NCBI GenBank assembly: GCA_963723125.1
Contig: CAVRPQ010000005.1
Location: 174,717 to 238,716, forward strand
Direction of reading: 5' to 3'
DNA from: an uncultured bacterium
GTDB taxonomy: Bacteria; Verrucomicrobiota; Verrucomicrobiia; Limisphaerales; UBA11358
Length of the DNA stretch: 64,000 bases
A program made the translations under genes and the position numbers. Positions 22,415-28,932 of the stretch are shown one piece after another. Every line of letters begins with the position of its first letter. Positions within the stretch are counted from its first letter, which is position 1. Under the pieces are notes generated by a model. The model did not search any database. It had not been told where the DNA came from and saw only the letters and a program-made list of their open reading frames with translations.

Positions 22415-23938
22415 TCAATCACAGGGCACGGTGCGGTCTGACGCCCAATCGCGCGTTTCCTGGATCTTCTCCCTCATGACCACCGACAGGGGCCGGGTCT
22501 GCTGGATTTCGGTAATCAAATTCGCCTGCGTCAGGCTGTGCCCTTGCGCGTGCGCGGTGTACATCGCCGATACGATGGCCTGTTCGATTTCCGAACCCGA
22601 AAAACCTTTCGTGGCTTCCACCAGTGCGTCCAGGTCGAATTGCGCCGGTTCCAGCGAGCGTTTGCGCAGGTGAATCTGCAAAATGTCCCGGCGGTTCTGC
22701 GGCGACGGCAAATCCACGAAAAAAATCTCGTCGAACCGGCCTTTGCGCACCAATTCCGGCGGCAGGCGCATGATGTCATTGGCGGTGGCAACCACAAAAA
22801 CCGATTTTTTGCGTTCGGACATCCACGTCAGGAACGTTCCCAAAATCCGGCGCGACAGACCGTCATCGTCTTCCTGCACGGCCACGCCTTTTTCAATTTC
22901 GTCCATCCACAGGACGCACGGTGACATGACTTCGGCGGTTTCAAAGGCTTTGCGCAAATTGCGCTCGGTTTCGCCATAGTATTTGTTGTAAAGCACGCCG
23001 AAATCGAGCCGTAAGAGCGGCACGCCGAAAATCGCGGCGGCGGCCTTGGCCACGAGACTTTTGCCGCAACCCTGCACGCCCAACAGAAGAACGCCGCGCG
23101 GTGGGTCGAGCGGCGTGTCGGCGTCACCCAGAAAAAAGTCCTTTCGCACGGTCAGCCAGTCGCGCAGCCGCTGCAGGCCGCCAATTTCCGAGAATTGCAC
23201 GGTTTCATATTCAAATGACAAAACGCCGTCGCGTCCGAGCAATTCATATTTCGCGCGCATGACTTCGGGCATTTCCGATTCGGAAATCACGCCGTCATCG
23301 TTGATGGCCTTGAGGGCGAGGCGGCGCACATCCGTGGTGGTAAGGCCGACCAGGTTCCGCACCAGCAAATCAACCGCCTTGTTGGTCGTTTGGACATCCC
23401 GTTTGCCGTGTTCCGCGCCCCAGTCGGCGGCCACATCATAAACGATTCCGCGCACTTCATCGGATGACGGCAGCGGCAGGCGAAACCGCGCGGTGAACGG
23501 CTGCAAATCCGGCGGCACCGGCATGGTCGAACCAACCAATACCACCGTTGAATAGTGGTGCGAATACGTCAGGGCAATGTCTTTCAAATAACGGACCACC
23601 ACCGCATCTTCCAAATAGGGATTGAAATCCAGCAGGAGGAACAGCGAATACGAGGCGGAATTTTTGATATAGCTCAGAACTTCCTGGGATTTGCTGACCG
23701 ATTGCAGCGGCTGGTCACACGGATCGAACGCCTGCAAGCCTTCCGTCACCGTCCAGCGGTACGCTTTCAGTTGTAAACGTTGTGCGATTTGCCGCACCAT
23801 TTGGACAATCTGCGGCTCTTCGCCGGTTTCGACGACAATCAGCGGTGTTCGTGAACGGATGATGGCCTCCAAATCACGAATCGGGCTTTCCGTGATCAGC
23901 GATCCCGTATTGGCGAGTTTGGCGGACGGCAAATTCAT
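22415..23938 (-). CDS. AAA+ ATPase, Ycf46-like
   Basis: Degenerate N-terminal ATPase-like domain, then GVQGCGKS, WMDEIEK, VATAN and LPPELVRKGRFDEIFFVDLP. Confidence 0.85.
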   Translation of the reverse strand: MNLPSAKLANTGSLITESPIRDLEAIIRSRTPLIVVETGEEPQIVQMVRQIAQRLQLKAYRWTVTEGLQAFDPCDQPLQSVSKSQEVLSYIKNSASYSLFLLLDFNPYLEDAVVVRYLKDIALTYSHHYSTVVLVGSTMPVPPDLQPFTARFRLPLPSSDEVRGIVYDVAADWGAEHGKRDVQTTNKAVDLLVRNLVGLTTTDVRRLALKAINDDGVISESEMPEVMRAKYELLGRDGVLSFEYETVQFSEIGGLQRLRDWLTVRKDFFLGDADTPLDPPRGVLLLGVQGCGKSLVAKAAAAIFGVPLLRLDFGVLYNKYYGETERNLRKAFETAEVMSPCVLWMDEIEKGVAVQEDDDGLSRRILGTFLTWMSERKKSVFVVATANDIMRLPPELVRKGRFDEIFFVDLPSPQNRRDILQIHLRKRSLEPAQFDLDALVEATKGFSGSEIEQAIVSAMYTAHAQGHSLTQANLITEIQQTRPLSVVMREKIQETRDWASDRTVPCD

Positions 23939-25476: not shown

Positions 25477-26106
25477 TTACACATTCACTGATGATTTTTC
25501 CGTCAAGCCGGCGATATCCTTGCGCGATTGCACAACCTGGTCCACGAGTCCGTACTCCCTGGCTTCGTCGGCAGACATAAACCGGTCGCGGTCCGTATCA
25601 CGCGTGATGTCCTCCACCTTGCGCCCGCAATGTTTGCCGAGAATTTCATTCAACCGGTCTTTGAGCCGCAAAATTTCCTTCGCCTGGATGCTGATGTCGG
25701 TGGCCTGGCCCTGCACGCCGCCCCAAGGCTGGTGAATCATGATGCGCGCGTTTGGCAGCGCGTAGCGTTTGCCCTTCGTGCCCGCCGCCAGCAACACCGC
25801 CGCCATGCTCGCGGCCTGGCCAATACAATACGTATTCACGTCGCAGGTGAGAAATTGCATGGTGTCGTAAATCGCCAGCCCGGCGGTGACGCTCCCGCCC
25901 GGCGAATTGATGTAAAGATGGATGTCCTTCTTCGCGTCGTTCATCTGGAGAAACAACAGTTGGGCGATGATGATGTTGGAAACGGTGTCATCCACCGGCG
26001 TGCCGATGAAAATGATTCGGTCCACGAGCAGGCGGGAATAAATGTCCCACGTCCGCTCGCCGCGTCCAGTCTGCTCGACCACAATTGGAACCAAAAAGTT
26101 TTGCAT
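25477..26106 (-). CDS. clpP: ATP-dependent Clp protease proteolytic subunit
   Basis: [18 protein letters not shown] (Ser), MIHQP (His) and DRDRF (Asp). Confidence 0.96.
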
Positions 26107-26181
26107 GCCTGAATAACTACTCCATTTCTGACGCAAGTAAAGGAGCAAACCTTGCGCCAAACCTTGAAGACACACGGAAAT

Positions 26182-26691
26182 TTATCTTTGGTCCCCGGTT
26201 GAATACTTTTTCCAAATCAACCGGAAGGCACTTGCGAAATCTTGCGGACGCCCGGCAACCCAACGCGTAACCGCTTCCGGCGCAAGCCACTCGCCACGCT
26301 CGATTTCGCCGGGATGTAATTGAAAAGGCCCTTCCGCCTGGCAGCGATAAACCCAGACGAATTCCTGGCCTGTTTCCGCGCAAGCGTCAATCTTGAACAA
26401 ACGTTCCGGAGTTTTTGGGACAATCAATCCAATTTCCTCGTGCAACTCGCGCACCGCACAGGCATCGTAATCCTCTCCCGAATCCACGTGGCCGGACGAC
26501 GAGGAATCCCATTTGCCCGGTTCGCGGTCCTTGGTCATCGAACGTTTCTGGAGAAAAACCACGCCGCGTGAGTTGAACACCAGCACATGAATGGCGCGGT
26601 GCAGCAATCCAAGCCGATGAACTTCGCCGCGTGGCTTATGATCAATCACCTCGTCGCGCACGTTGACGACATCGAAGATTTCTTCAGCCAT
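26182..26691 (-). CDS. NUDIX hydrolase (Idi/YfcD-like)
   Basis: Nudix box GHVDSGEDYDACAVRELHEEIG, with LLHRAIH and LQKRS. Confidence 0.88.
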   Translation of the reverse strand: MAEEIFDVVNVRDEVIDHKPRGEVHRLGLLHRAIHVLVFNSRGVVFLQKRSMTKDREPGKWDSSSSGHVDSGEDYDACAVRELHEEIGLIVPKTPERLFKIDACAETGQEFVWVYRCQAEGPFQLHPGEIERGEWLAPEAVTRWVAGRPQDFASAFRLIWKKYSTGDQR

Positions 26692-26700
26692 GAAGGAGAT

Positions 26701-27030
26701 TTACGGCCAATCGTCGCCGTGTTGGAGTTGATCCAATTTCGTGGCGCGAAATGCCGCGATAAAATCCTTGATGAATTCATCCTGCGGCTTTTGCGGCAAT
26801 CTTACGCGAAGTAATTTGAATCCGGCCGGGGCTTTGCTTTTACGAACATTATTTGCAAAACCGACATCACGCGTGAAACAAACATCGAAATTCTGAAGCG
26901 CGAATCGGTAAATTTTCCCATTATCCAGTCCTTGCATCCGCAATGTGTGAACCGACTCGACCTCGTGGCCTTCGGCACGCAAGGCAGCGACGAGTTTGCG
27001 CGGAAGATTCTCGTCGAGCAGAATTTTCAC
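26701..27030 (-). CDS. DUF5615 family PIN-like putative toxin
   Basis: MKILLDENLP, GLDN and TRDVGF motifs. GTG start overlaps the DUF433 stop. Confidence 0.82.
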   Translation of the reverse strand: MKILLDENLPRKLVAALRAEGHEVESVHTLRMQGLDNGKIYRFALQNFDVCFTRDVGFANNVRKSKAPAGFKLLRVRLPQKPQDEFIKDFIAAFRATKLDQLQHGDDWP

Positions 27031-27236
27031 GCCGGTTGCAATTCTTTTTGATGCGCCAGTTCAGCCAGCGCGCCGCGCACGGATTCCTCGGTGAGGCTCG
27101 GATAAGCGTCCGCGATTTCGGCGACGGACATGCCGGCGGCGAGCGACTCCAAAATGAGCGCCACGGAAATGCGCGTGCCGCGCACACGCGGGCTTCCGCC
27201 CAAATGTTCCGTGTCGGCGACAATCCATTTCTTCAT
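27027..27236 (-). CDS. DUF433 family putative antitoxin
   Basis: GGSPRVRGTRISV...GMSVAEIADAYPSLT signature. Confidence 0.88.
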   Translation of the reverse strand: MKKWIVADTEHLGGSPRVRGTRISVALILESLAAGMSVAEIADAYPSLTEESVRGALAELAHQKELQPA

Positions 27237-27267
27237 GCAATCAAATTATTTGCTGTTGCGGAATAAA

Positions 27268-27315
27268 TCAAGCTGCGTCGCGCGCGTTGACGACATCAAA
27301 AATTTCTTCGCTCAT
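27268..27315 (-). pseudogene. Orphan duplicate of the NUDIX gene 5' end
   Basis: Encodes MSEEIFDVVNARDAA*, versus MAEEIFDVVNVRDEV at 26691 (34/40 nt identical). Has an ATGA overlap with the upstream ORF. Confidence 0.85.
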
Positions 27316-28080
27316 TTGGCAACAGTTTTTTCAATTCGCAATGTTGGCAAATAGTATTCCCACTCGGATTCATCAAACAAAATTTTTGCATCTATACTAA
27401 CAGTAGCGTATCCGCCGGGGATTTGTAATTTGTAACGAACTGTTTTCCGAAAAAATGGTGGTGAATCATCGCAAACAACACGTTTATGGCCTGTTACTTT
27501 GCCAAAATGTACTGCAACTGATGGCATTGGATGAATTTCTCTTGCTTTCGGATAAACCATTTCAGCCATAGCCGTTTCGCCCATCAGAATGTAAAGCTCA
27601 TAGTCATTGGCATCTGGATGAGCAAGCTGGGTTAGAAAACGTCTGCGTCCATAATTATAAGTCATGTCCAAAGGTGATGCGGAAAAATGCTGACGTTTCC
27701 AATTCACTATCAATGACCATTCTTCAAAATATTTTGATTTCGCTTTTGGCGGCAGTTCCATAATTATCCGCTCTTCAGGTTTTTCGGGTGGTTTGACAAA
27801 TTCTTCTGGATCCTCAATCGCAATTAAAAAACAGCCGAGAACAAAATGAAGTCTGTCATCGCGACGGCTCGAAAGATATTTTCCCAATTCTTCGAGGTCG
27901 GCGGCGAGTTTTTCTTTGGCTTCCGCTTCCGTCTTTTCTCGAATTTGCTCACGAACGAGATCGCAAAGCAGTGTTGTGTCTGTCCCTTCATCTATTTTGG
28001 ATTTTGGAATTTTGGCAAGAAATTCGCGATATGGTTCCAAATATCGTAGAACGTTCTGGCAAAGGCTCTGGTTTGGCCAT
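27312..28080 (-). CDS. AT-rich hypothetical protein, probably with a 1-nt frameshift near its start
   Basis: 242-aa ORF from TTG 28040. Removing one base at 28050-28051 joins ATG 28080 to give MAKPEPLPERLRYLEPYREF. Two sampled 60-nt lines are 33% and 43% GC. No motif recognised. Confidence 0.6.
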
Positions 28081-28092
28081 AAGTTTTTAGCC

Positions 28093-28932
28093 TTAATTGC
28101 AAAGTGATTTTGTCAATTCAACAAACCGTTCCAAGCTCAATTTCTCCGCGCGTTCCTGTGGCAGAATTTTCAATTGGCTGAACGCCCGTTCCAGTTTTTC
28201 AACCGGCCAATCTTCGCGCAGCAATTTTAGCATCATCTTCCGCCGTTGAGAAAAGGCGCTTTTGACGATTTTTTTGCAAGTCTCGCGCTGGTTTTCCAGC
28301 AAAAGCGGCGCGGCGCGGCGATTCAGAACCACGCAGGCCGAATCCACGTCCGGTTCCGGGAAAAAACAGCTTTTCGGAATTTTGAAGGAATCGTGCGGTT
28401 CGTAATCGAGCTGCACGAGTAAAGTCAGCACGCCGTAATTCGCGTCACCGGCTTTGGCCATGAGCCGTTGTGCCACTTCCTGTTGGAGCGTCACCACGAT
28501 TTTCTTTGGCGCACGCGCGCCCCGGGCCAGTTCCACCAGAATTGGCGACGCCACGGAATACGGCAGGTTGGCCACCAGTTTCCAATTACTCCAATCCCGT
28601 AGCTCGCGTTTGAGAAATTCCAGCGCATCAGCGTGGAGCAAACTGAATTGCGGATTGCGGATTGCGGAATGCGGATTGAACTGCTCGCGCAAGAATTCCA
28701 CAAGCCGGGCATCTTTCTCAATGGCCAGAACTTCGCCCGCATTTTCCAGAAGCCACTCCGTCAACGGCCCCAACCCTGGCCCGATTTCGAGGATTTTATC
28801 GGTCTTTGACAACTCAGCTGCCTCAACGATGCGCCGCAGTTGGTTGCCGTCGTGCAGAAAATTCTGGCCGAGGGATTTCGTCAATTGAATCCCGCGCGCC
28901 GCCAGCAACTCCCGCATTTCGGACAGTTTCAA
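28093..28932 (-). CDS. rsmA: 16S rRNA m6,2A1518/1519 dimethyltransferase
   Basis: KSLGQNFL, LEIGPGLG, ANLPY, FFPEPDVDS and FSQRRKM motifs. Confidence 0.95.
   Translation of the reverse strand: MKLSEMRELLAARGIQLTKSLGQNFLHDGNQLRRIVEAAELSKTDKILEIGPGLGPLTEWLLENAGEVLAIEKDARLVEFLREQFNPHSAIRNPQFSLLHADALEFLKRELRDWSNWKLVANLPYSVASPILVELARGARAPKKIVVTLQQEVAQRLMAKAGDANYGVLTLLVQLDYEPHDSFKIPKSCFFPEPDVDSACVVLNRRAAPLLLENQRETCKKIVKSAFSQRRKMMLKLLREDWPVEKLERAFSQLKILPQERAEKLSLERFVELTKSLCN
28647..28678 (-). repeat. Tandem heptamer array (plus strand ATTGCGG x3, AATGCGG) in frame in rsmA
   Basis: Encodes NPHSAIRNPQF. Same unit as the aguA array. Confidence 0.88.

Follow-up and report, generated by a model that had tools for sequence, protein, structure and literature searches.

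In an uncultured bacterium of the Verrucomicrobiota (GTDB lineage UBA11358), a small toxin-antitoxin (TA) cassette made of a DUF433/DUF5615 gene pair lies within the start of a NUDIX hydrolase gene, between a dead copy of the first codons and the start that heads the intact gene. The locus belongs to a stretch of 64,000 nucleotides, hereafter the window (contig CAVRPQ010000005.1, positions 174,717 to 238,716, of assembly GCA_963723125.1), and we compared the genome that holds it, G000, with a set of 163 genomes of the genus. The arrangement is a real and recurrent scar of long target duplication with TA cargo, found at two docking sites across the genus, and the route that produced it is most likely host recombination or repair without a dedicated enzyme. 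We put at roughly 0.7 the probability that the cassette entered the first NUDIX codons by what has been termed insertion with long target duplication.

The two copies of the gene start are unequal in fate but close in sequence (Table 1). A repeat search returned direct repeat copies at 26652-26685 and 27276-27309, 34 nt long with 91% identity and a spacing of 624 nt; counted from the ATG, the stub and the live start agree at 34 of 40 positions (Hamming distance 6), and an alignment that allows a 2-nt gap reaches slightly further. The preliminary description of this DNA, made from the letters alone, had placed the gene pair between a dead stub and a live start with this 34/40 identity and had noted that the copies are no short exact target-site duplication, and sequence and Pfam bear it out on the pair and its placement, as do the repeat copies on the second point. 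The ATG of the stub at 27315 shares an ATGA overlap with the stop of an upstream accessory open reading frame (ORF), orf242, and the stub ends at a TGA at 27268. Within the insert, the DUF5615 gene starts with a GTG that overlaps the DUF433 stop by 4 nt (27030-27027), forming a two-gene operon, and a 9-nt spacer separates the toxin stop from the NUDIX ATG. The cassette of about 600 bp is made up of a leader and these two overlapping ORFs, with 584 nt between the 40-nt repeats (26692-27275). At the joint, a possible TGATT match between NUDIX positions +46 to +50 and the start of the leader is a very short candidate for microhomology.

Could the stub be a fortuitous resemblance? A degenerate 25-nt pattern covering NUDIX codons 3-11 matched in 114 of the 163 genomes and its reversed control in none, which, as far as sequence can tell, rules out a chance match; the pattern matches inspected (57 NUDIX loci) all sit at NUDIX starts or stubs.

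The preliminary description had also allowed that the locus might be a chimera of two strains, their versions joined in a metagenome-assembled genome, and this we regard as extremely improbable. The contamination estimate of G000 (3.75%) and a second DUF433 allele in the same metagenomes speak for it, as do three other genomes (G052, G076 and G085; loci L063-L068) in which both pattern matches are full-length NUDIX genes on different contigs, a doubling that fits mixed strains in those assemblies and not stubs. Against it, contigs from three studies bridge each of the two junctions with 0 differences. The check used the contigs of four soil-metagenome runs; contigs drop rare forms, and one of the bridging runs may be the window's own source sample. 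The junction between the NUDIX start and the TA genes is crossed by X1 record 2 (25904-27053) and X2 record 17 (26323-27119), and the DUF433/stub/orf242 junction by X1 record 6 (27153-27481), X2 record 18 (27142-28251) and X5 record 26 (27153-27608). No single contig covers both junctions, because a bubble at 27024-27182, made by the second DUF433 allele, interrupts them. G143 (on a contig of 422 kb) and G090, moreover, share the architecture.

Relatives preserve the site without the insert. The NUDIX gene was present in 41 of the 41 relatives searched, usually in the order rsmA-NUDIX-clpP-clpX, and five genomes (G004, G016, G035, G001 and G027) have just one NUDIX start, 4-72 nt beyond rsmA. 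These empty-site genomes are different species with NUDIX genes 67-85% identical, not near-identical strains; G004 is the closest relative of G000 (NUDIX 85%, ClpP 96% identity). The comparison supports reading the DUF433/DUF5615 pair as an inserted accessory cassette. In relatives the gap between rsmA and NUDIX is also a general hot spot for unrelated accessory genes (loci L003, L005, L007, L013, L014 and L016-L019), whose cargo includes secreted proteins, a NOV_C-domain gene, an AAA ATPase gene that likewise ends in an overlap with the NUDIX ATGA and, by eye, a low-molecular-weight phosphatase-like gene.

The doubled start recurs in the genus with different cargo. Two pattern matches were found in each of six genomes, and on one contig in three of them: G000 (624 nt apart), G090 (605 nt) and G143 (664 nt). 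G143 has a 65-nt stub that agrees with its own start at 63 of 65 positions, the same leader, and a TA pair 93% and 80% identical to that of G000; in G090 the stub agrees at 34 of 35 positions and the same leader precedes a ParD/ParE cassette (Pfam ParE_toxin) that ends in a stop overlapping the ATGA of NUDIX. A DUF433/DUF5615 pair with a decayed stub is present in G023. In G066, rsmA is followed by an orf242 homologue (54%), an ATGA overlap, a decayed stub, a diverged leader and HicB/HicA genes (Pfam HicA_toxin); no NUDIX gene was found in this genome, which is 89% complete, at E<=1e-10. TA cassettes lie directly upstream of NUDIX in 10 of the 163 genomes, as DUF433/DUF5615 in G000, G143, G023 and G085, as ParDE in G090, G003, G009, G109 and G089, and as an orphan DUF433 followed by ParDE in G047. 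The junction positions within NUDIX vary (about +36, +40 and +66). Just before the leader, G143, G023, G047, G003, G009 and G066 retain a CGCGGC remnant of very few bases, and these remnants suggest either a single ancient junction at about +66 of NUDIX, shortened afterwards by internal deletions, or a junction that travels with the cassette.

The start of a second conserved gene hosts cassettes in the same manner. The DUF433/DUF5615 cassette lies inside a gene with ThiF and Rhodanese domains (MoeB-like, by Pfam) in G090 (contig 172), G041 and G111, between direct repeats of 121, 141 and 153 nt, respectively, that consist of the gene's promoter region and about 33 codons. In G043, ParDE occupies a ThiF/MoeB-like gene between repeats of about 131 nt that begin near -15 and reach codon 38, and the different repeat boundaries indicate a separate insertion event. 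The ThiF/MoeB-like gene of G000 itself is an empty site. Further repeat-flanked copies are found in G136 (84 nt, around a hairpin) and G177 (41 nt), and around ParDE in G082 (75 nt). The DUF5615 toxin occurs in 24 of the 163 genomes (E<=1e-8), mostly away from NUDIX, and the DUF433 of G000 is 88-94% identical to the main group of copies elsewhere; in a tree of the cassettes, the NUDIX-site copies neither cluster together nor stand apart.

The antitoxin genes of different TA families share leaders that are fused to them at the start codon. What we call the type 2 leader (GCTTGATTTATTCC...ATAATTTGAYTGC, then ATG) precedes DUF433 in G023, G047, G143, G085, G136, G082, G128 and G146, precedes ParD in G090, G003, G009 and G089, and in diverged form precedes HicB in G066. 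It resembles the native upstream or promoter region of the ThiF/MoeB-like gene of G000, as if it had been carried over from the ThiF site. A type 1 leader stands before DUF433 at ThiF and hisC-like loci and before ParD in G061. The composite of an orphan DUF433 and ParDE seen at NUDIX in G047 is found at ThiF in G084.

Direct repeats also surround toxin genes elsewhere in G000. A self-comparison of the genome for direct repeats of 30-260 nt, at least 84% identical and 300-2500 nt apart, was swamped, when unfiltered, by CRISPR arrays, attC sites and paralogues; removal of repeat arrays and of repeats within single ORFs left 61 pairs, 27 of them with a spacer of at most 900 nt. The Pfam families inside repeat pairs are ParE_like, DUF4160 with DUF2442, PIN_3 with RHH_1, DUF4926, PIN with VapB (the latter weak), HicA and DUF433/DUF5615; the HicA gene, at C6:260762, was recovered by family search only. 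Several repeats are gene ends (gene names there are a reading by eye), one stopping exactly at the downstream ATG and others being 3' ends with two different stop contexts. Among 15 toxin genes chosen blind to repeats through three family searches (PIN 9, ParE_toxin 3, HicA_toxin 3), 6 lie between direct repeats of at least 30 nt, vs 422 of 20000 random 330-nt segments (2.1%), a binomial p of 3.7e-7 for genes that are not independent of one another. The enrichment of orphan gene termini beside TA genes, which the preliminary description had proposed as a test, is thus present in the form of flanking repeats, several of which span gene starts or ends.

Some further loci of G000 lie outside the window. 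The array at C3:23077-25826 consists of small cassettes split by five copies of a repeat of about 72 nt, unlike the attC sites of G000, and carries a DUF5615-like gene (by eye), a ParE_toxin pair and a PIN pair; one site may have received insertions several times, or the repeat may be an element not yet described. A tRNA 3' end occurs in two perfect 31-nt copies around a GIY-YIG gene (Pfam 1.3e-11; C6:1199802-1200488), and two arrays, at C4:18258-19779 and C9:44412-46023, contain a 36-nt repeat every 71-73 nt or so and are CRISPR-like by spacing only. A search of five relatives for the empty site of the DUF4160/DUF2442 cassette gave no clean one: the cassette is common to G004 and G022, and in G016, G011 and G017 the left flank is not conserved and homology begins at the right repeat.

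No machinery for mobility accompanies the NUDIX cassette. Integrase and transposase genes are absent between 22.4 and 31.2 kb of the window and terminal inverted repeats from the cassette ends, as the preliminary description had stated for the locus, and the integron attC core (GCCTAAC / GTTAGGC) is absent from the entire 64-kb window. None of the 163 genomes has an integrase or a larger element between two NUDIX starts. The genome as a whole has 30 Phage_integrase matches above the Pfam cut-off (33 at E<=0.001), and its IntI genes sit on other contigs than the window. Two chromosomal integrons were found outside the window, at C3:447715-455627, with an integrase match near the cut-off of 265 bits (260 bits; C3:454698-455627), and at C1:392100-398020, with one above it (380 bits; C1:392100-393029), and both adjoin arrays of attC-like repeats (GCCTAAC...GTTAGGC) of roughly 80-130 nt.

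How did the cassette come to lie between two gene starts? Since no element-encoded recombinase is present, we infer that DNA that is incoming or ectopic is joined by host recombination or repair. The stretch between the NUDIX ATG and the point of insertion would end up on both sides of the insert, upstream as a dead stub and downstream as the head of the intact gene. An illegitimate initial joint might be made by fill-in at a staggered break, by template switching or through homology on one side only, and selection would then eliminate every insertion in which the duplication is too short to restore the whole gene, which we propose as the reason that the repeats span gene starts and ends. Once established, the repeats and conserved flanks would let homologous recombination delete the cassette, swap it (DUF433/DUF5615, ParDE or HicBA) or carry it between genomes that share the gene start. 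The anatomy of the locus, the recurrence at NUDIX and ThiF/MoeB, the substitution of one cassette by another behind a common leader, the empty sites, the absence of a recombinase or attC and the enrichment of repeats around toxin genes are observed directly; these molecular steps, and any circular or transforming intermediate, are our interpretation of them. A bolder extension, which we offer as a tentative possibility, is that TA cassettes are recombinase-free mobile units that carry, or create on entry, a copy of a housekeeping gene's conserved end, with the NUDIX and ThiF/MoeB starts acting as integron-like docking sites that have no integrase and host homologous recombination excising, stacking, swapping and re-inserting the cassettes across species.

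Several observations weigh against insertion with long target duplication. The repeat copies in G000 differ at 6 of 40 positions, and a duplication identical at birth is not demonstrated. Of 22 DUF433/DUF5615 loci compared for flanking repeats, 13 have none scoring at least 14, and the maximum-likelihood tree of the 22 cassettes is star-like, with 6 of its 19 inner branches well supported. The shared junction remnants mean that independent events at NUDIX may be fewer than the genomes that show them, and 2 of the 6 flanked toxins share the one array at C3:23077-25826, whose 72-nt repeats may be a repeat element. A simple sigma-70 promoter scan did not call the leader and placed its one promoter-like site inside DUF5615. 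An excised form, a cassette-skipping joint or a circle was not seen in the contigs of the four runs.

The preliminary description had held that the module arrived from a relative together with its own copy of the gene start. That an accessory cassette was inserted stands, on the evidence of the five empty-site relatives; that the live start was imported with it is not supported, the live gene being uniformly like that of G004. Over each of eight 60-nt windows the live NUDIX is 83-88% identical to G004, a comparison of NUDIX-clpP with seven relatives by sliding identity has no mosaic break, and right after the repeat comes a clade-specific IDHKP motif. Stub and live start, furthermore, share the GATGTC typical of their clade, in place of which G143, G023 and G090 and their clade have GACATC. 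From these three features together, only the leader and the TA genes look foreign. On the import reading, DNA from a relative with the order TA-NUDIX would have been anchored by homology in NUDIX/clpP and joined at about +40 by homology-facilitated illegitimate recombination, leaving the resident start as the stub and the donor's as the live one. Donors with this adjacency exist (G023, G085 and G143), the stub keeps its coupling to the resident orf242, an arrangement also seen in G066, and it is nearer to G004 (4 differences in 40) than is the live start (7), although three of those seven fall in the hypervariable codon 2. G004 keeps its own DUF433/DUF5615 copy elsewhere, at ThiF, with only 76% toxin identity, so the copy in G000 was not simply inherited in place. 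Yet no donor tract is apparent (a very close relative as donor would leave none visible), the live start lacks the GACATC of the known TA-NUDIX genomes, and in several genomes the donor DNA would need a left breakpoint at the same position of the leader, give or take a few nt. We therefore consider import possible but unlikely, and do not favour it over a duplicated resident start. Assigning donor and recipient by nearest neighbour against 47 distinct NUDIX starts was also tried and set aside, 40 nt being too short and too conserved.

Two other routes differ in what they take the repeats to be. If a circular or self-joined molecule of gene start, leader and TA genes integrated in the Campbell manner, by way of host RecA and with the conserved gene start as its site, the cassette would bring its own homology arm and behave as a recombinase-free mobile unit. 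This alternative is conceivable, though rather doubtful. It would account for the same junction remnant and leader in different clades with different cargo, for a type 2 leader that resembles a promoter piece carried over from ThiF, a former target, and for the orphan-DUF433 and ParDE composite at both NUDIX and ThiF; the flanking repeats permit excision, and a comparable cycle was proposed for restriction-modification (RM) genes (Furuta 2010, PMC2853133). It leaves the first insertion at a new target unexplained, no circular junction or empty allele is seen in the contigs, which drop rare forms, and the junction-proximal stub remnants look lineage-matched rather than donor-like, over a mere 12-18 nt. 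Alternatively, the two NUDIX starts might be the attL and attR of an integrative island whose integrase and cargo were deleted, leaving a stabilising TA pair. Some known islands, those of dusA-targeting integrases among them, integrate at the end of a gene and bring a replacement for it, and G000 has both integrons and abundant Phage_integrase matches. Even so, such a relic is very unlikely: none of the 163 genomes has retained the larger element, and same-contig pairs of NUDIX starts are only 605-664 nt apart; repeat lengths and junctions vary, at NUDIX as above and at ThiF between about codon 33 and codon 38; at least five unrelated targets would need different integrases; and the window holds no attC core. 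Insertion with long target duplication remains our favoured explanation.

The features of the locus are collected in Table 1. Its neighbours include AAA, ClpX, ClpP, RsmA, Aminotran_3 and Radical_SAM genes. Downstream of clpX, an AAA+ ATPase of 507 aa (22415-23938, minus strand) matches PADLOC IetA models (best 8.5e-26). NCBIfam and PADLOC gave no match for the TA pair, and Pfam, NCBIfam and PADLOC gave none for orf242, which is found in 6 of the 163 genomes. The true start of orf242 is probably the ATG at 28080, since a 30-aa ORF (MAKPEPLPER..., 27988-28080, minus strand) matches the N-termini of the homologues in G066 and G164 before the frame shifts. The base at 28050 is missing from contigs of three runs (X1, X2 and X10), so the extra base of the window may be a 1-nt insertion error or belong to a frameshift variant. 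In G164, a broken orf242 homologue is followed by a remnant of very short length.

Table 1. Features of the NUDIX locus, with positions in the 64,000-nt window
Feature	Position	Strand	Remarks
rsmA (16S rRNA adenine dimethylase)	28932-28093	minus	Pfam RrnaAD 8.3e-51; conserved left neighbour
orf242, rare accessory ORF without family	28040-27312	minus	stop TGA 27314-27312 overlaps stub ATG
Dead NUDIX-start stub, 16 codons (MSEEIFDVVNARDAA, then stop)	27315-27268	minus	left direct repeat 27276-27315
Junction and type 2 leader (GCTTGATTTATTCCGC..AATAATTTGATTGC), 31 nt	27237-27267	minus	ends at DUF433 ATG
DUF433 (COG2442-type) putative antitoxin	27236-27027	minus	Pfam DUF433 3.2e-20
DUF5615/PIN_10 putative PIN-like toxin	27030-26701	minus	Pfam DUF5615 7.5e-16, PIN_10 2.7e-6
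NUDIX hydrolase gene, intact	26691-26182	minus	Pfam NUDIX 1.1e-20; first 40 nt (26652-26691) are the right repeat
clpP	26106-25477	minus	Pfam CLP_protease 2.3e-85; conserved right neighbour
clpX	25452-24175		beyond clpP; conserved right neighbour

The nearest parallel comes from RM systems, for which insertion of gene complexes with long target duplication was reportedly described by Nobusato et al. in 2000. The paper of Furuta, Abe & Kobayashi (2010, PMC2853133) describes RM genes inserted with long, variable target duplications, the repeats exceeding 30 bp and often spanning a translation start or stop, with no other mobile element, with empty sites in relatives and with allelic substitution; it suggests DNA breakage caused by RM systems as a common property and proposes a virus-like cycle, unproven. 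In Mruk & Kobayashi (PMC3874152), long target duplication is repeated for RM systems only. The NUDIX insertion has the features used to recognise such events: both module genes lie inside the insert, which is shorter than 20 kb and has no other mobile-element gene, the direct duplication exceeds 30 bp (34 nt, 91%), and related genomes have a single-copy empty site. As in the RM cases, where the repeats run from above 30 bp to about 100 bp or more, an addiction module without transposase or integrase lies between long and variable target repeats and leaves the target gene intact. Unlike them, the cargo here consists of type II TA pairs (DUF433/PIN-like, ParDE, HicBA, DUF4160/DUF2442 and others), the insertions recur at two genus-wide hot spots, the NUDIX and ThiF/MoeB 5' ends, and a shared leader is fused at the start codon to unrelated antitoxin genes. 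Because the cargo is TA and not RM, double-strand cutting by the cargo, the cause suggested by Furuta, is unavailable here. In the literature searched, which mostly does not extend to subscription journals, we found no description of long target duplication for classical TA cassettes.

Other systems share parts of this architecture. Integron cassettes, like those described here, often carry TA pairs and are small, promoter-poor, and stacked or exchanged at one site, whereas the present cassettes have no attC at their ends and no IntI nearby, and their repeats copy the local gene. Integrative islands target gene ends (tRNA 3' ends or the dusA 5' end) and supply a replacement end through a tyrosine integrase with a fixed att core. 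There too the gene end is present twice, the gene is intact and the repeats include coding sequence, but here the element contains no recombinase, repeat lengths and junction positions differ among genomes, and the targets are many. Homology-facilitated illegitimate recombination and Campbell-type integration let host enzymes take in DNA with one homologous segment in naturally transformable bacteria, and the latter duplicates that segment; unlike their products, the NUDIX insertion has no donor tract that we could find and no circular form in the contigs. As for the cargo, the nearest known systems are the PIN-COG2442 pairs of the VapBC family, for which Makarova 2009 (PMC2701414) is reportedly one source. 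A DUF433 protein (COG2442) paired with a PIN gene is proposed as a VapBC-family TA system in Ning et al. 2013 (PMC3834315). The order here is the same, a DUF433 protein gene and then an overlapping PIN-like gene, with the difference that the toxin matches DUF5615/PIN_10 and not the classic PIN model, and its activity is putative.

How chromosomal TA modules move is a long-standing problem: their distribution is patchy, they are clearly mobile, and most of them lack mobility genes. The cassettes described here provide a natural system in which to address it: units of about 600 bp occupy two conserved gene starts in genomes of one genus, with scars of 35-153 nt left by the duplication, empty sites in relatives and, in the same system, start-codon-precise swaps between unrelated TA families. 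They extend an insertion mode documented for RM genes to a second class of addiction modules, which speaks against the view that insertion is caused by DNA cutting on the part of the cargo, and the host-recombination model becomes testable. For annotation, the finding accounts for orphan starts and ends of genes next to accessory genes; such stubs should not be called genes. If the docking-site extension is true, the NUDIX and ThiF/MoeB starts would serve, across species, as integron-like sites without an integrase.

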